A DNA stretch of 64,000 bases. Origin: a candidate division WOR-3 bacterium (GTDB taxonomy: Bacteria > Hydrothermota > Tepidihabitantia > Tepidihabitantales > JAOUPE01). The DNA is taken from the NCBI GenBank assembly GCA_039801565.1, contig JBDRUX010000001.1, positions 62,577-126,576 on the forward strand, written 5' to 3'. Each line of letters begins with the position of its first letter. The first letter of the stretch is position 1. Below are positions 9,457 to 16,457 of this stretch, in pieces. A program made the translations under genes and the position numbers. The notes below the pieces were generated by a model. That model saw only the letters and a program-made list of their open reading frames with translations, ran no database searches and was not told where the DNA came from.

Positions 9457-10338
9457 TTAGAATTCTATAAATTTTTGTCCAAAAGTCAATCCACCCGAGT
9501 AAATCAAGTTGCTATTTTTCTTATCTTCACAATGAGAAAGGTCATCTTAAAATGAAGATTTGTATTTTGTGCGTGGTCAATAATTGAGTATCCAAGGTGA
9601 TTAATCATCTTTTGAGGACCGCTCTTTGACAATTTGGTTTGTGTCTAATAAACCACTGCAACTCGTTAAAAAACTCCAACATCTTAACTTTCAATCAAAG
9701 GAGCAAAGCCCCTTTAAAACTCCAATTCTTTTCTTAAATCCGAGGAGATGAGGGGTTTCCCCTCATCCACAAACTTGAAAGTTATCATTAGAATCAAAAG
9801 CAATATCGCCTATGACTTTCTTTACCTTCACATTGGGATGGAGTTACTTAAATATTGAGTAATCACCGAAGAAAATTGCTGAGTCTTGGATTCGTTACCT
9901 GAAACTACTTCGACGGCGATAGGAAATGAGGAGGCTTTTACGCTAACCAAAATGAATCCCTTCATCACTATGAGCTCAATATGATTGGTTTTGGTTAGGG
10001 CAAAGATTTAAGTGACGAAGCTGTGGAAGAGTCGAAAGATTTTATCGTCTTTGCGGAGGTTCTTTTCGATAAAGAAAGTATTAGGTATGGGCAGGGGTTT
10101 TGAAATGTCTCACAGAAAATGAGAAAAAAGTGACAGACAAATCGGCGAAGCCGATTTAGAAAGAGAAAAAGAAAATTCCTTAAGAATTCGTTTCTTCTTT
10201 TAAACTTATTATACTCATTTAAATTTCCACGACTAATAGGGGACTACCAGAGCTAGTGGCTTATTTTATAATCTTTCATAAAGTTTTTGACAGTACCTTT
10301 AATTTGATAAAATCCGGCAAGCTTAATACAAACGAAAT

Positions 10339-10372
10339 CCCCTGCTTCCCGCCCGGAGCGGAAAGCAGGGGT
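10339..10372 (-). terminator. Hairpin downstream of the repeat-peptide gene
   Basis: cccctgcttcccgc-ccgga-gcggaaagcagggg stem. Confidence 0.55.
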
Positions 10373-10442: not shown

Positions 10443-10724
10443 TCAAGTGCTAATAGTCGGTGGAACCGGTTTCGGTGGCTGAGGAATACCATCCGGTGGC
10501 ACCGGCTTCGGTGGTTGCGGAATACCATCAGCAAAAATCAGAGGAGGTACGGGTTTAGGAGGTTGGGGAATACCATCGGTGTAAAGCCCCGGTGGAACCG
10601 GTTTCGGTGGCTGAGGAATACCATCCGGTGGCACCGGCTTCGGTGGTTGCGGAATACCATCAGCAATCACTGCGAAGACAGTGATCAGGAGCACAATCCA
10701 TAAAAGCGCGGTAGTATGTCGCAC
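10443..10724 (-). CDS. Secreted multicore peptide precursor, 93 aa: signal peptide + 5 x DGIPQPPKPVPP
   Basis: SD AAAGGAGG before GTG at 10724; Sec-type signal ending FAVIA; the cores are identical in protein but differ at synonymous codon positions. Confidence 0.85.
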   Translation of the reverse strand: MRHTTALLWIVLLITVFAVIADGIPQPPKPVPPDGIPQPPKPVPPGLYTDGIPQPPKPVPPLIFADGIPQPPKPVPPDGIPQPPKPVPPTIST

Positions 10725-10911
10725 AGAGCCTCCTTTCTTGGGCATACGCCCATTATTATTAATATCATTTCTAATTCCACCCGGTACTAATTTATAAGAT
10801 GTTAATATTACAATTCTTAAAAAAATAATGCAAATTTTTTAATTCTAACAATGAAAATAAAATTGTCGCACCGCTCAAAAAGTTTTATAAGTTTTGTATT
10901 ATCAGTTAATT

Positions 10912-13900
10912 TTAAGAACTCTGGAAGTCTTCTTTATTGATATTATAACGTCGGAGCAATCGTTGAATTTGTCGCCGATGGGTGGAGAGCATTTGAGCAG
11001 CACGACTCACATTGCCTTGGGTGGCTTTGAGTGCTTCAATTACTTGTTCCCTCTCCAAACTTTTCTTTTGACCTTTCTCAATTTTCATCGTCTTTGCAAA
11101 ATTAACAATTTTCGGACCGAGATTTTCTAAACTGATTTTTCGCTTTTGCGCCATTATCACTGCTCGTTCGATTACATTTTGCAGTTCTCGGACATTACCT
11201 GGCCAGGGATATTCGGTAAGAATTTGGGGAATGTTATCTTCAAAACCCAGAATCGGCTTATTGAGTTGTTTCGCATACCGTTTTAAAAAATATCCGGCTA
11301 ATAGCATAATATCGCTTTTCCGCTCTCTTAACGGTGGCACCTGAATTGTTACAACATTCAAGCGATAATAAAGGTCTTCGCGAAACCGATTAGCTTTAAC
11401 TTCTTCTTCAAGATTTTTGTTAGTGGCACAAATCAGTCGCACATCTACTCTTCTCGGTTCAGTTTCTCCCACCCGTCGAATAATCTTGTCCTCCAAGACC
11501 TCTAAAAGTTTTGCTTGGATACTTAATGAGGTATTGGCAATCTCATCCATAAAAATTGTACCATGTTCAGCAATTTCGAATAAGCCTTCTTTGTCCCGAA
11601 TCGCTCCGGTAAAAGCACCTTTGCAATGCCCAAATAGTTCGGATTCAAATAGTGTTTCAGGCAATGTGCCGCAGTTGATTGAAACAAATTTGTTGGCACG
11701 TCGGTTACTATTGGCATGAATTAATCGAGCTAATACCCCTTTACCTGAACCAGTCTCACCTAATAATAGCACAGTACAATCAGTTGGAGCTATCTGTTCG
11801 ATTATCGAATAGACATCCTTTATCGCTTTAGAACGTCCTAAAAAATAGCCAGTTACCGCATCGGTCAAAATATCCTCCCGCAGCGCGGAAAAATCCTCTT
11901 GCATCTTCTTGAAAGCAAAAGAGCGGTCAATAGTGGCAGCAAGAAGATTGGCTACCGAGATGAGTAAATTTTTGTCTTCTTCGACAAACACATTGGGATT
12001 GATTCGGGAATCAAGATAAATTGTCCCGATAACTTTATCATCAATCCGCAATGGTACACAGACTAAAGAACGAATTTTATTTAATACCACACTATTAGAA
12101 TTAACAAACCTTGGGTCCGATAAAGCATCAGCGCAAATTATCGGTTCCGCACGTTTTTTAACCTGACGAATCACAGTTCGCGAAATTGTATGTGCATCTT
12201 CTAAAGTGGTGTGGTCAACATTACGCGCCGCCACCGGGAATAACTTATCCCCTTGAATTAAGAAAAGAAGACCGCGCTCGGCCTGGGTTACATCAATGAT
12301 TAAATCTAATAACCGGTCAGCAAAATCCTCTTTCTCTAAGTCAAGATTAATTAATTCACTTAATTCATAGAAGACTTTTAAATATTCGCCACGCTCCCGC
12401 CCTTTTAATTTATGGGTTGCTTCAAGTTGACTAATATGATTTAACATATATCTCACCCTTTCTTGTTCAACTTTCGCTCCTAAACTTGTAAAAATTGTCT
12501 CAGCCTCTTTTAAATCATCCAATACCCGGGTAAGTTCCTGTTCCGATAATGGCTTGTAAGTAATTGGTAGGGGCTCGCCTTGGTTATAAGTTTTAGGTGC
12601 AGTAAGAAGTAACAGGCTTGCCTGGGCTTGGTAATAAAGCGATTTTGCCATTTCATATTTTGCACCTAAGCTCCGAAGAATCTCAATACTTCGATTCAAT
12701 TCTTCTTTCCCATCATCCGTAAAACCAAGGGCATGTTTAGCTAATCCTCGCCACCGTAATAAAAGGGAGTATAGTCTCGGATTAGCATTATATGCTTGAC
12801 CTTCTGCTGCTGGTAAAGTTAATAAATTCTGAGCTCGTTCACAGGTGGTTAAACACTTAGACCAATCGGCTTCAGCCGCCCGTATCCCAGCTGCAGTTAA
12901 AAGCATTTCAATCAATTTCTGTTTATTTCCTTTCGCATAAATTCTTTGCACATTAAGGGCAAGGGCAAGAGATTTAATTGCTGAATCTACTTGATCGCGC
13001 ATCAAGTGTAATTTCGCCCAAGCTAAGTAAATTTGACCCAAAATTTGTTGATTTTTGTTCTGTTTGGTCAAATTTTCTGCTTCTTTAAGCAAAGGTTCAG
13101 CATCAATGAAGTCGCCTTTTTTCGTAAATAGATTAGCCAGATTAATTAGTCCGATGACCAACCCATTATCGTCCCTAATATTTTGCCGAATTTCGATATC
13201 CTTTTGGTAATAAGCGGTTGCTTTTTGCCAGTCCCCCATCTCTTCTAAGATAATACCTAGGTTACACAATGTATCACCCAATCCGGCTGAATCACCAATT
13301 TTTTCGCAGAGTTCTTTTGCTTCTTTAAAATATTCTAAGGCTTGATGCCAATCGCCAGTTTCAAAATCAACCAAACCAAGACCCTGAATGGTACGAATCC
13401 GAAAGTAAACATCGCTCAATTCCCAAAGTGGTGAGGATAGGATGGAAGAATAAGTTTCTTTTGCCTTATTTAATTCCCCTTTCTGCCAGTAGATTGTCGC
13501 TAAGAACTGACCAATTTTTCCCCGGAGATTGGACTTGGAAGAAATCCAGTTTGATTCTACTTCTTCTCGCGCAGGGGCTGGTTTCTCATATAATGCAAGA
13601 CCACGATTCGCATATTCTAAGGCCAAATCAATCTCCCCTTTATACCAGGCAAGGGCACTCATTCCATAAAGAGTTCGTGCCTTTAGGTCAACCAACGATT
13701 CGGAATTTTTTAAATCAATCGTTTTTAAGGCTAAAGAATAAAACTCCTCGGCTTTCTTAAAATCACCTTTAGCGGTTAACGACCAGCCGATGTCATTCCA
13801 AAGGGTTATTGTTCCAACTGCGTCTTTTTCTTTAAGGGTGGTGAGTGCTTGTTTGAAATAACTGATTGATTCATCTACTTTACCTTGTTTCTGATAGATT

Positions 13901-16254
13901 AGTCCTAATCGGCGCAAAACACTGGCTAATAGCGAAACATAGTTGGGTTCTCTTCTTAAGGTATTGTCGGAAAAGAGAATACCCAGTCCTTGAGTATAAA
14001 TGTCAATGGCATCGGCAAAGCGTCCCGTGATTTCCCGCAAGCGCCCAACAGCTTCAATTAACTCAATCCGTTCTCGGGCTGATACAAAGTTGGATGATAA
14101 GGCAAGCGCAGTTTCATAAAAACCAAGTGCCAATTCTGTCAGATTTAATCTTTTTGCTTTGGCTCCTGCCTCACGACAATAGTTAAAAGCTCGATCTTTT
14201 ATCCCAGCCTGGGTGTAGTGGTGAGCTAAATCAAAAAGGTAACGATCTTGTTCCCGCGGGTAAAGCAATTCGATTGCCAGGGCAACTGAGCGATGATAAT
14301 CCCGTCTTTCTTGCACACTAATTCCTTCGGTAATAATCGCTTCTAAGGTCTTGGAGGATAAGACAAAACCATCCGAATCGGGTAGGGGGCGCAGTAAATT
14401 AATCGCCCGTAACCTTGAAAAAATTGAATAGAGGAGATGTTCCTCATAACCTAAAACCGCACGAACAAAATCAACTGTGAAAGGAGTTCCAGTAATCGCT
14501 CCCACCTTTAAAACTTCTAATTCTTCTCGAGTGAGAGTACTCAGTCGTTCTTTAATCAGCGAGTAGACAGTGTCTGGTAATTTGAAATCGCCTGATGTCA
14601 ATCGGTTACGGTCTAATCTCCAACGACCGTATTCCAATTGAATGACCTTGCTGGCCAAAAGGGAATAAAGCGATTCAATCACAAATAGTGGATTACCGCC
14701 GGTACTGGCAAAAAGCCAGGTGCTCAACTCGGCGCTTGATGGATGAGGACCAAGAATTGCTTCCACTAAAAGTTGAGTCTCCTCTTGAGTTAGTGGACCA
14801 AGCGTAATGTGTTGAAAAAATTCTTTTCCCAAAAATTCTTTACTGAGTTCTAAAATTCTCCGCTCATTCAAACTGCTCACCACCACAAAAATTTTCTCCT
14901 TCTCAATGCTAAATCCTAAGAATCGGAGAAATTCGAGACTCATTGAATCAAATAATTCAAAATTATCAATCAGCAATAAAAGGCTGTGTTCAACCTTTGA
15001 TGAATTAGCTAACGCTTTGAGCTTTTTTATTATTTCTTCAAATAATTCATATTTTGTTGCCTCGTCTTCCTGCTTTGCTACAATGTTTTTGATATCTTTA
15101 CCATCATAAATTGATAAATTAGCTAAAATGTCTTCAATTAAAGATGGGGGGCGAGCACCTAATGCAGTATGAGCCGATTGTAAAATTGAAACACCTTCTA
15201 ATTTAGCGAGAAATTTAAATTCTTGTAAAAGCCTACTTTTACCCACGCCGCGTTCCCCGGTGATAAAAACTAATTGTCCATTTGAACCTTTGGCTGATTC
15301 TAACCGGTTTCTAAGAACGTTTAACTCATTTTCTCGGCCAATAAAACTCGAAGCTTGAAGAGAAAAAACACCTTCTCCGCTTCGCCGAATGCCAATAGTC
15401 GGTATTTTTTCCTTTAAAGATTCTGGTATTATATCACTTATCGTCTCGATAACTTCTAAGGCAGAAATTGGACGCCGAAAAGCATCCCGTGCGAGTAAAC
15501 GCATACAAAGGTTAGAAAACTTCTCGGGGATTTTGCTATCAATCTCACTTGGTGGCGCGAAGTTGGAATAATATTGAGTCCGTAGCCAATTCCGTAAATC
15601 TGTTTCGGTTGACGGTCCCCGACCGGTTAGGATTTCATAAATTACCATACCTAATGAGTATAGGTCAGCCCGACCATCCGCTTCGGTTCCCTTAAAAATT
15701 TCTGGTGCAATGTAACCAAGTGTTCCGCGTGGTATCTGATTGGAAGAAGAGAAATAATTAGCAAACCCAAAATCTAATAATTTGGCTCTTGCCTTGTTAC
15801 CGGTGTCAGAGTCGATCGCCGTATTGACCAGGATATTCTGAGGTTTCAAATCACAATGAATTAATCCCTGGCTGTGAATAGTATCTAAGGCATACAATAT
15901 CTCAATCAACACTAATAATAAATCTTCGGAATATCCTTTAAAAAATTTGTTAATCGGCGCACCTGGAAAATATTCCATTGTAAAGAATGGCTTTCTTTCA
16001 GTTATCCCAAAATCGAAAGGTGCGACAATATTCGGATGATTAAAGCGACTGAGCATGAAAAATTCTTGATTTAATTGATTCTCAATTTCTTTTGTCGCAG
16101 GTTCTCGGGAGATTTTTAGGGCTACGATGCGGGCACCAACCAAATCCTTTGTTTTGTAAACCTCAGTTATTTCACCACCACCCAGATAATCTAAAACCTG
16201 ATAACGGCCGGCAATTAAACTGCCGGTTTTAAAAGCACCCTCTTTTTGATTCAT
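10912..16254 (-). CDS. Ser/Thr kinase - STAND/AAA ATPase - TPR - GAF - sigma54 activator - Fis HTH fusion (1780 aa)
   Basis: Kinase motifs VALK, IHCDLKPQN, DFG, GTLGYIAPE; GERGVGKS; TPR array; GAF (RSLVCVPL...GTIYLD); GETGSGKG, ESELFGHCKGAFTGA, RFREDLYYRLN; GNVSRAAQML. Confidence 0.93.
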   Translation of the reverse strand: MNQKEGAFKTGSLIAGRYQVLDYLGGGEITEVYKTKDLVGARIVALKISREPATKEIENQLNQEFFMLSRFNHPNIVAPFDFGITERKPFFTMEYFPGAPINKFFKGYSEDLLLVLIEILYALDTIHSQGLIHCDLKPQNILVNTAIDSDTGNKARAKLLDFGFANYFSSSNQIPRGTLGYIAPEIFKGTEADGRADLYSLGMVIYEILTGRGPSTETDLRNWLRTQYYSNFAPPSEIDSKIPEKFSNLCMRLLARDAFRRPISALEVIETISDIIPESLKEKIPTIGIRRSGEGVFSLQASSFIGRENELNVLRNRLESAKGSNGQLVFITGERGVGKSRLLQEFKFLAKLEGVSILQSAHTALGARPPSLIEDILANLSIYDGKDIKNIVAKQEDEATKYELFEEIIKKLKALANSSKVEHSLLLLIDNFELFDSMSLEFLRFLGFSIEKEKIFVVVSSLNERRILELSKEFLGKEFFQHITLGPLTQEETQLLVEAILGPHPSSAELSTWLFASTGGNPLFVIESLYSLLASKVIQLEYGRWRLDRNRLTSGDFKLPDTVYSLIKERLSTLTREELEVLKVGAITGTPFTVDFVRAVLGYEEHLLYSIFSRLRAINLLRPLPDSDGFVLSSKTLEAIITEGISVQERRDYHRSVALAIELLYPREQDRYLFDLAHHYTQAGIKDRAFNYCREAGAKAKRLNLTELALGFYETALALSSNFVSARERIELIEAVGRLREITGRFADAIDIYTQGLGILFSDNTLRREPNYVSLLASVLRRLGLIYQKQGKVDESISYFKQALTTLKEKDAVGTITLWNDIGWSLTAKGDFKKAEEFYSLALKTIDLKNSESLVDLKARTLYGMSALAWYKGEIDLALEYANRGLALYEKPAPAREEVESNWISSKSNLRGKIGQFLATIYWQKGELNKAKETYSSILSSPLWELSDVYFRIRTIQGLGLVDFETGDWHQALEYFKEAKELCEKIGDSAGLGDTLCNLGIILEEMGDWQKATAYYQKDIEIRQNIRDDNGLVIGLINLANLFTKKGDFIDAEPLLKEAENLTKQNKNQQILGQIYLAWAKLHLMRDQVDSAIKSLALALNVQRIYAKGNKQKLIEMLLTAAGIRAAEADWSKCLTTCERAQNLLTLPAAEGQAYNANPRLYSLLLRWRGLAKHALGFTDDGKEELNRSIEILRSLGAKYEMAKSLYYQAQASLLLLTAPKTYNQGEPLPITYKPLSEQELTRVLDDLKEAETIFTSLGAKVEQERVRYMLNHISQLEATHKLKGRERGEYLKVFYELSELINLDLEKEDFADRLLDLIIDVTQAERGLLFLIQGDKLFPVAARNVDHTTLEDAHTISRTVIRQVKKRAEPIICADALSDPRFVNSNSVVLNKIRSLVCVPLRIDDKVIGTIYLDSRINPNVFVEEDKNLLISVANLLAATIDRSFAFKKMQEDFSALREDILTDAVTGYFLGRSKAIKDVYSIIEQIAPTDCTVLLLGETGSGKGVLARLIHANSNRRANKFVSINCGTLPETLFESELFGHCKGAFTGAIRDKEGLFEIAEHGTIFMDEIANTSLSIQAKLLEVLEDKIIRRVGETEPRRVDVRLICATNKNLEEEVKANRFREDLYYRLNVVTIQVPPLRERKSDIMLLAGYFLKRYAKQLNKPILGFEDNIPQILTEYPWPGNVRELQNVIERAVIMAQKRKISLENLGPKIVNFAKTMKIEKGQKKSLEREQVIEALKATQGNVSRAAQMLSTHRRQIQRLLRRYNINKEDFQSS

Positions 16255-16298
16255 TCAATAAAATTATACTAAAAATTTTATATTTGTCAACAATAAAG

Positions 16299-16318
16299 TG
16301 CGACAGATGTTTGTCGCA
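16299..16318. promoter_or_regulatory. Palindromic operator/UAS upstream of the kinase-bEBP gene
   Basis: TGCGACA-N6-TGTCGCA just upstream of a TTGACA-N16-TATAAT promoter; half-site TGTCGCA also at 10864-10870. Confidence 0.55.
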
Positions 16319-16383: not shown

Positions 16384-16457
16384 TGGGCCGTGCAGGACTC
16401 GAACCTGCGGCCACCGGATTAAAAATCAGGTGCTCTACCAGCCTGAGCTAACGGCCC
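16384..16457 (-). tRNA. tRNA-Lys(UUU)
   Basis: GGGCCGTTAGCTCAGGCTGGTAGAGCACCTGA-TTTTTAA-TCCGGTGGCCGCAGGTTCGAGTCCTGCACGGCCCA cloverleaf; one U-C mismatch in the anticodon stem; CCA not encoded. Confidence 0.9.

Follow-up and report, generated by a model that had tools for sequence, protein, structure and literature searches.

A large kinase–STAND–TPR–sigma54 regulator and its adjacent proline-rich peptide gene: a candidate peptide-based control circuit in Hydrothermota

What does a short gene for a proline-rich peptide do directly behind one of the largest regulator genes of its genome: does it encode a signal for that regulator, or a product that the regulator makes for some other purpose? 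The question is raised by a locus of an uncultured candidate division WOR-3 bacterium (phylum Hydrothermota; GenBank assembly GCA_039801565.1), found in a 64,000-nucleotide (nt) stretch of contig JBDRUX010000001.1 (positions 62,577 to 126,576), hereafter the window, in whose numbering all coordinates are given. Between 10443 and 16318, with all features of both genes on the minus strand, a gene for a 1780-residue kinase–STAND–tetratricopeptide repeat (TPR)–GAF–sigma54 activator protein is followed by an open reading frame (ORF) for a peptide precursor with five copies of a proline-rich core. The original prediction, drawn from the DNA letters, held that a pheromone-like 12-mer is sensed by the TPR region and drives the kinase and sigma54 output. 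Here, we show that regulator and peptide gene form a conserved pair that is not a product of chance, and that the small gene is under coding constraint and stands in a conserved layout of promoter, operator-like sites and terminator. The module looks like a peptide-based control or signalling circuit hitherto undescribed. To the whole favoured reading, a self-contained two-gene module whose peptide feeds back as a signal on the regulator, we give a probability of about 0.4.

The two genes and their conservation

Within the same order, the regulator occurs as an uninterrupted full-length frame (at least 1743 residues, 42–67% identity) in 33 of 60 relatives and in pieces in 8 further genomes, with 0 of 10 in family f5. 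A proline-rich small ORF follows it in 37/37 same-order orthologous loci (38/38 with the source genome), mostly starting 190–260 nt after the regulator stop; the 40 loci read were reduced to those with at least 150 nt of downstream sequence, which leaves out L029 as too short, and L040 was set aside as a paralogue devoid of the kinase–STAND–TPR half. In other orders and classes of the phylum, at 25–32% identity, 14 of 18 loci carry such an ORF (38–67 residues); 13 of these 14 partners combine a signal peptide with a C-terminal proline-rich tail, and the remaining one, L113, has two cores and no leader. Among the distant loci without a partner, none was found at L116, only about 190 nt remain to the contig end at L121, and the gene end is masked at L125. 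Metagenome contigs show the ORF in 33 of the 36 loci with enough downstream sequence, counts that are not independent because many of these contigs repeat loci of the species genomes and all are kin. Two contigs close to the source genome (L138 and L139) carry 5 and 3 copies of the same GIPQPPKPVPP core, and further metagenome precursors have 4–5 cores.

The domain order of the regulator is kept along with the pairing. Pkinase–AAA_16–TPR–Sigma54–HTH_8 was recovered in 5/5 distant orthologues tested and GAF in 4/5 (E 1e-8 cut), and of 272 species across the phylum, 73 give a match (E 1e-40 or better) to a STAND–TPR query. Matches outside the phylum (Gemmatimonadota, Planctomycetota and others, 20–26% identity) differ in architecture and lack such an ORF. 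The original prediction had named, as findings that would speak against it, homologous receptors lacking an adjacent peptide gene and peptide homologues in unrelated contexts. The partner is present in nearly every orthologous locus; a second copy or homologue of the peptide was looked for elsewhere in the source genome and none was found, and the only 2 relatives in a large protein collection are both precursors of the same type. NCBIfam holds no family matching the peptide, an Atlas feature search with it gave only weak proline-rich look-alikes (0.75–0.77, under 0.8), and Rfam over the region gave only a tRNA at 16384–16457.

The regulator gene (10912–16254) begins with a Pkinase domain (residues 18–262, 15469–16203; Pfam PF00069, E 4e-41), in which the catalytic Lys, the HCD loop with its Asn, DFG and APE are intact, as expected of a Hanks kinase. 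It is followed by a STAND NTPase core (AAA_16, residues 304–447, 14914–15345) with the Walker A motif GERGVGKS, identified by Pfam, motifs and fold match, with nSTAND1 and TPR_MalT matching alongside. The helical repeat or TPR sensor array spans about residues 640–1290 (12385–14337) according to Pfam TPR families, TPR_MalT and AlphaFold2, individual TPR families being matched at about residues 778–1104. This succession of Walker A/B core, helical arm and repeat sensor is that of a STAND protein with TPRs. A GAF domain (Pfam; residues 1309–1442, 11929–12330) leads to the sigma54-interaction AAA+ domain with GAFTGA (residues 1472–1638, 11341–11841; PF00158 Sigma54_activat, E 6e-70) and a Fis-type DNA-binding helix-turn-helix (HTH) domain (HTH_8, Pfam; residues 1733–1770, 10945–11058), the combination that characterizes a bacterial enhancer-binding protein (bEBP). 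Both Walker A motifs are intact; over 10 aligned orthologues Walker A and B are kept and GAFTGA reads G(A/S)FT(G/S)A. The catalytic-loop Asn (residue 140) is His in 5 of these 10 orthologues, with Lys, Asp and DFG kept, and kinase activity may differ across lineages. Peak hydropathy over 19 residues is 1.44 with no transmembrane segment, and therefore the protein is predicted to be cytoplasmic. The source genome encodes rpoN.

The AlphaFold2 model of the sensor region (mean pLDDT, a per-residue confidence score, 82.7) places the STAND core before a superhelix of helical hairpins. Among the Foldseek matches listed, the top one is the STAND–TPR protein 6mfv_A (E 1e-13), with OGT and peptide-binding TPR domains, LGN among them, coming next.

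The small ORF starts at a GTG at 10724, 187 nt 3' of the regulator gene, and encodes 93 residues (ORF reading, 10443–10724 with the stop included) behind a Shine–Dalgarno sequence AAGGAGG (10729–10735). An upstream ATG would give a 100-residue version (10443–10745); relatives' ORFs begin at the equivalent GTG. A hairpin GGGC-GTAT-GCCC (10740–10751) lies just 5' of the ribosome-binding site, and a similar one occurs in G001, L138–L140, L035 and L037. Residues 1–21 (10662–10724) form a predicted Sec signal peptide ending V-I-A, with a 15-residue leader of mean Kyte–Doolittle hydropathy 3.07 and the cleavage site V-I-A|D placed by eye. Then follow five DGIPQPPKPVPP cores (10458–10661; sequence reading and Tandem Repeats Finder) at 10661–10626, 10625–10590, 10577–10542, 10529–10494 and 10493–10458, separated in order by no spacer, GLYT, LIFA and no spacer. 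Core 1 stands directly after FAVIA and core 4 directly after LIFA. The original prediction is confirmed in these particulars: the five-part 1780-residue protein with intact GAFTGA, the same-strand 93-residue ORF with a strong Shine–Dalgarno sequence and exact cores, the first core at the cleavage site and, as far as can be judged by eye, the spacer LIFA that mimics that site.

At the DNA level, core 1 equals core 4 and core 2 equals core 5. The three distinct versions vary at 9 sites, each a third codon position at which the change is synonymous; therefore the repeat is coding and under purifying selection. The leaderless orthologues behave likewise: L011 and L014 differ by 5 synonymous and 0 non-synonymous changes, and pairs within family f4 differ by 1–3, 1–3 and 4–8 changes at codon positions 1, 2 and 3. 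With close leaderless relatives varying mainly at third codon positions, the small ORF has the signature of a real gene. The runs listed with this stretch are DNA only, labelled hot springs metagenome, with no RNA among them. In a contig assembly of 4 DNA runs, one contig from run X2 lacks 132 nt (10457 to 10590), leaving two cores, with a joint that is ambiguous over 77 letters; either the population is polymorphic in core copy number or the assembly collapsed the repeat.

Promoters, operator-like sites and neighbouring genes

The peptide gene is preceded by a sigma54-like −24/−12 element, TGGAAT-N5-ATGAT (GG-N10-GA, 10764–10779), degenerate at −12. At the homologous position, G001/L140 and L138 have a canonical GG-N10-GC, and in family f4, as in the source genome, GG is kept with TGT or TGA at −12. 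Of 37 loci, 26 carry the pattern GG[CTA]A[CT]-N6-TGC 20–105 nt before the small ORF, where the background of these loci would yield it by chance in about 1.2% per locus; in the other locus sets it recurs in 7/14 and 23/31 real rows. Further upstream, a TGCGAC half-site resembling an upstream activating sequence (10865–10870) lies 146 nt 5' of the peptide start. TGCGAC or GTCGCA is found 95–270 nt 5' of the small ORF in 35/37 loci, where arithmetic gives a chance of about 0.09 per locus.

The same motif marks the regulator's own promoter. A palindrome TGCGACA-N6-TGTCGCA (16299–16318), a likely operator, abuts a sigma70-type promoter that matches the consensus at 12/12 positions (TTGACA-16-TATAAT, 16263–16290). 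This promoter ends 8 nt before the regulator ATG (16254–16290). No Shine–Dalgarno sequence is visible, and the regulator mRNA would be leaderless or nearly so. In 19 of 20 loci, TGCGAC/GTCGCA occurs at most 220 nt 5' of the regulator's first in-frame start or just inside it, often at about −66/−46. The full palindrome is present once in the 2.31-Mb genome, and a genome-wide search for a wider regulon returned this site at the regulator's own promoter plus one differing palindrome. A palindrome ATGCGAC-GCA-GTCGCAT has three copies (contigs C21:5021, C26:10383 and C26:12578 of G000), one of them on C26 just after another GAF–sigma54 activator gene, and could serve that paralogue as an operator or be a repeat element. 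Family f43 has an HTH of differing sequence, a promoter element TGACAC-N5-TTGCT and, at the corresponding places, GTGTAAC-N6-GTTACAC palindromes in lieu of TGCGAC, as expected if the sites belong to the regulator.

Downstream, an intrinsic terminator with a 15-bp stem, 10 G–C pairs and a T-rich tail (10339–10371) closes the gene; 24 of 35 loci have a called terminator after the small ORF, and most of the others have G+C-rich hairpins with weaker tails (by eye). As read from its sequence, the peptide gene is a stand-alone unit with its own promoter, operator-like sites, Shine–Dalgarno sequence and terminator. Given the conserved sigma54-type promoter pattern and the TGCGAC sites at both genes, the regulator most likely has the peptide gene as its dedicated target. 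We consider activation of the peptide gene by the regulator to be very probable, and the conserved layout suggests that the regulator would also act on its own promoter. These cis-regulatory data go beyond the original prediction and would make the peptide gene, first of all, the regulator's target.

The genes that follow the small ORF vary: smpB and an amidase gene, a convergent radical SAM gene or, in distant lineages, GAF–HD or GAF–PAS genes, and in the source genome cstA at about 880 nt. This terminator-to-cstA gap (9457–10338) has no ORF above 56 residues and no Rfam match and is unusually long for a compact genome; about 33–44 nt of it at 10260–10303, just 3' of the terminator, recur in several metagenome contigs with differing flanks as a dispersed repeat. 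The radical SAM gene (about 310 residues) lies beside leaderless peptide genes in L046, L048 and L049 only (genera g14, g7 and g3), its product having a C-terminal TrmB-type HTH in L046 and the radical SAM domain only in L049; it is probably unrelated to the peptide, a modifying role being the less likely reading. In L126, L118, L120 and L122 an unknown same-strand ORF of 96–117 residues comes after the peptide gene. Further 3' lies a GAF–HD (HD_5) protein in L126 and L128–L130 and a GAF-containing protein in L118, L120 and L122, with PAS in L118 only (L120 unscanned, L122 cut by the locus end). In these distant lineages the peptide gene may be within a larger operon.

The layout also bears on whether the small ORF is a translation-arrest leader in the manner of SecM, MifM, VemP and ApdA/ApdP, in which polyproline stalling would report secretion or EF-P status to a downstream gene. 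There are likenesses: arrest peptides, too, come from small ORFs, frequently with a signal or anchor at the N terminus and a proline-containing motif at the C terminus. Here many forms end in x-P-P plus 0–2 residues and the stop, ancestral-looking forms join a signal peptide to a C-terminal proline-rich motif, and smpB comes next in several loci. RAPP-like ends are known among arrest peptides (PMC7897499, PMC10951233). However, no regulated gene is co-transcribed downstream here: the peptide gene has its own predicted sigma54 promoter, the terminator directly follows it in the 24 loci, and the next gene is not conserved, is convergent in several loci and in the source genome is absent for some 880 nt. 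Moreover, an arrest sensor would have no use for exported precursors with several cores, leaderless forms exist, and in the short forms the leader would, by reasoning, be too near the proline motif. We regard arrest control as quite improbable.

Peptide forms, export and processing

Most orthologues encode a leaderless ORF with one core and not a secreted multi-core precursor of the kind originally described. In the same order, 32/38 partners are leaderless ORFs of 16–25 residues, such as MDGIPIPPRPGPLGPP and MFGVFVPPPPLPVPPK, and six (G000, G001, G032, G049, G046 and G045) have a signal peptide with 2–5 cores. ORFs of 16–25 residues would often be too short for gene callers. Every multi-core form has a hydrophobic leader with A or G at −1 followed by the first core, and the spacers echo the hydrophobic-A|D pattern of the leader (LIFA|DG, VLFA|DG, LILA|DG, SWLA|DG). 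In the leaderless forms the initiator Met stands exactly at the would-be cleavage position. Therefore, the Asp-Gly start of the mature peptide would be a fixed point of the family. On the regulator tree, exported multi-core forms fall in two clades, f1 and one made up of G049, G032, G046 and G045, within which the leaderless G036 also falls. Given that the distant lineages are signal-bearing, the export signal would have been lost or regained several times with the core kept.

Two further arrangements were seen. At L131 (G223) and L042/L145, two tandem leaderless mini-ORFs stand behind one sigma54 promoter about 225–400 nt after the regulator, each with GGAGG and a TTG start and encoding near-identical peptides; this is a two-cistron alternative to the multi-core precursor. 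In L123 (G254), a probable fused variant, the proline-rich stretch comes right after the signal peptide of a 288-residue protein with a C-terminal sorting domain of the type IX secretion system (T9SS); the hosts of the module are uncultured bacteria that also encode T9SS-sorted proteins.

For the source genome, the leader makes export of the peptide probable, and the precursor would then be made as a Sec-exported protein. The genome has one signal peptidase I gene; no processing protease for the precursor was identified. Cutting after the leader (VIA|D) and at the look-alike spacers would probably release about five 12-mers starting with Asp-Gly, and we put the odds for processing into 12-mers at even. 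The missing protease and the composition of the repeats, which resembles structural proline-rich proteins (the weak Atlas matches), are also what would be seen if the leader were uncleaved and the product were a small membrane-anchored or periplasmic structural protein with the repeats as an extended spacer. That explanation is improbable, since anchorless orthologues of 16–25 residues keep the same core, and the exact core copies are under purifying selection with spacers that imitate the leader's cleavage site.

A multi-core layout with recognition-like spacers is also known from cyanobactin-type precursors, which belong to the ribosomally synthesized and post-translationally modified peptides (RiPPs), and the 1780-residue protein has a partial match to TIGR03903 (TOMM system kinase/cyclase; E 5.6e-49, far under the family cut-off). 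Both would fit a RiPP precursor with cores that are modified by enzymes from other loci. However, RiPP enzymes encoded with the precursor were not found: in line with the original prediction, there is no conserved modifying enzyme beside the pair, either in the window or in 30 loci with 84 neighbour ORFs scanned. The core has no Cys, Ser or Thr, and leaderless 16-residue forms have no recognition leader, so that we consider the RiPP explanation very improbable.

Signal to the regulator or output of it

In the favoured reading, the regulator would be a STAND-type switch with TPR and GAF sensors, a kinase at one end and a sigma54 ATPase–HTH at the other. The HTH would bind TGCGAC-type operators, one overlapping its own sigma70 promoter and one 5' of the −24/−12 promoter of the peptide gene. 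Once activated, the regulator would drive transcription of a short monocistronic gene whose sole product is the proline-rich peptide. The peptide would then return to the same regulator, at the TPR array or another sensor part, closing a feedback or autoinduction loop analogous to the receptor–propeptide cassettes of Gram-positive bacteria. That the regulator senses the peptide is a tentative proposal, a little short of even odds, and its placement in the TPR array rests on analogy. A complex prediction of residues 640–1290 (10-row alignment) with the 72-residue mature region gave a score of 0.00, which is not evidence either way.

Several observations weigh against this reading. The predicted co-variation of the core with the TPR region did not appear: a partial Mantel test, which controls for the other domains and uses crude peptide distances, gave r −0.03 and p 0.63 over 49 unique pairs. 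Positive partial correlations with peptide distance were confined to the slow AAA+ and GAF parts and may reflect only that the peptide tracks phylogeny. The GIPQPPKPVPP core is identical across receptors that are only 55–60% identical, whereas in many pheromone systems pherotypes diverge fast. No export signal is present in 32 of the 38 same-order partners, so that export is not general to the family, and no SBP_bac_5 (OppA-type), OPT or SbmA_BacA importer was found in the 94%-complete source genome. At the promoter, the −12 of the source genome reads GA and not GC, with L139 and family f4 deviating too, and a sigma70-like promoter with 9/12 matches also lies 5' of the peptide gene. The importer and co-variation results lower the odds of a cycle of export and re-import. 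CstA, a putative peptide/pyruvate carrier encoded next door, was considered as a dedicated importer and rejected, its gene being unlinked or absent in the 5 other exported-form genomes. The leaderless forms could act directly in the cytoplasm; for them a cytoplasmic target, for example the regulator itself, fits better than an extracellular one. What holds of the pheromone-like reading is the cognate pairing and, for the source genome, an exported precursor with several cores; sensing by the TPR array is unsupported so far.

The same observations suit a peptide that is output only, where the regulator senses something else through TPR or GAF and the peptide acts without feedback elsewhere: on the envelope, on another cell, or inside the cell on a partner with affinity for polyproline helices. 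The cis-regulatory layout supports activation of the peptide gene and is silent on feedback, and the absent co-variation, the lack of an importer and the constant core beside diverging receptors all point this way. However, an interaction of the two products would better account for a one-to-one pairing kept strictly throughout the phylum, even where lineages changed between leaderless and exported forms, and the neighbour scan revealed no second conserved partner gene near the pair. We regard a peptide without feedback as a possibility with the odds against it.

Known systems resemble parts of the module. In RRNPPA systems a propeptide gene adjoins the gene for a TPR receptor (PMC9765709; PMC11343458), some propeptides carry tandem duplicated pheromones (PMC11343458), and a survey of these systems is confined to Firmicutes, mostly class Bacilli (PMC9765709). 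As in Rap/Phr, NprR/NprX, PlcR/PapR, AimR/AimP, Rgg/SHP and ComR/ComS, a cytoplasmic TPR-type protein here adjoins a short-peptide gene, which in the source genome encodes a hydrophobic leader and five cores. Leaderless mini-ORFs exist among RRNPP systems, and the present family likewise holds both Sec-leader propeptides and leaderless mini-ORFs. In contrast to the 300–400-residue HTH or phosphatase proteins of those systems, the receptor is a 1780-residue STAND NTPase with kinase, GAF and sigma54 activator. It comes first, followed by a peptide gene with a predicted sigma54 promoter; the peptide is a proline-rich 12- to 20-mer; the host is an uncultured lineage of another phylum; and neither Opp nor another Opp/Ami-type re-import system was found in the source genome. 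Homology to RRNPP receptors is likewise wanting. Pfam RNPP_C scores 33.9 bits with no stretch passing alone, among 39 mostly TPR families. Against PDB profiles, the TPR array matches NprR (E 1e-7) and RapH (E 1e-6) far more weakly than the generic TPR proteins kinesin light chain, LGN and OGT, and the listed Foldseek matches, which reach rank 50 and leave out chains similar to listed entries, include no RRNPP receptor. Judged by these comparisons, the module is not an RRNPP(A) member, having no homology beyond TPR repeats.

In PspF/PspA and ZraSR/ZraP, a sigma54 activator is encoded beside a small target whose product feeds back on it. The module would share with them a bEBP that adjoins a small sigma54-dependent target and autoregulates through the same operators, but their targets are folded proteins of more than 100 residues, against peptides of 12–20 residues here, and their activators have no kinase–STAND–TPR sensor. 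MalT and PknK-type kinase–STAND proteins are STAND regulators of the present kind. The NTPase core followed by a superhelical TPR sensor recalls the STAND–TPR regulator PH0952 (PDB 6mfv), and the N-terminal Hanks kinase recalls PknK-type proteins. Unlike all of these, the present protein has a complete GAF–AAA+–HTH sigma54 activator output in the same chain and a dedicated peptide gene attached. Literature searches found no publications on this architecture or this pairing.

To our knowledge, signalling by a cytoplasmic receptor and an adjacent propeptide has so far been described for Firmicutes and their mobile elements. If the favoured reading is true, such signalling extends to another part of the bacterial tree, with STAND oligomerisation feeding a sigma54 hexamer. 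A wider form of it, which we hold to be doubtful, is a phylum-wide non-RRNPP family of peptide signalling in which the STAND receptor would sense its own proline-rich peptide and transcribe its gene via the fused sigma54 ATPase, and in which lineages would have switched repeatedly between private (leaderless, intracellular) and public (Sec-exported, multi-copy) loops; such a family would be the first receptor–propeptide quorum-sensing logic tied to sigma54 and a STAND switch. The leaderless and exported versions are a natural experiment on private versus public signalling. Given the 73 of 272 species with a STAND–TPR match, gene callers may have missed micro-ORFs next to a regulator that ranks among the largest in these genomes. 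Even without the loop, the cassette of regulator, operator, sigma54 promoter and micropeptide would be a compact, portable and testable circuit.

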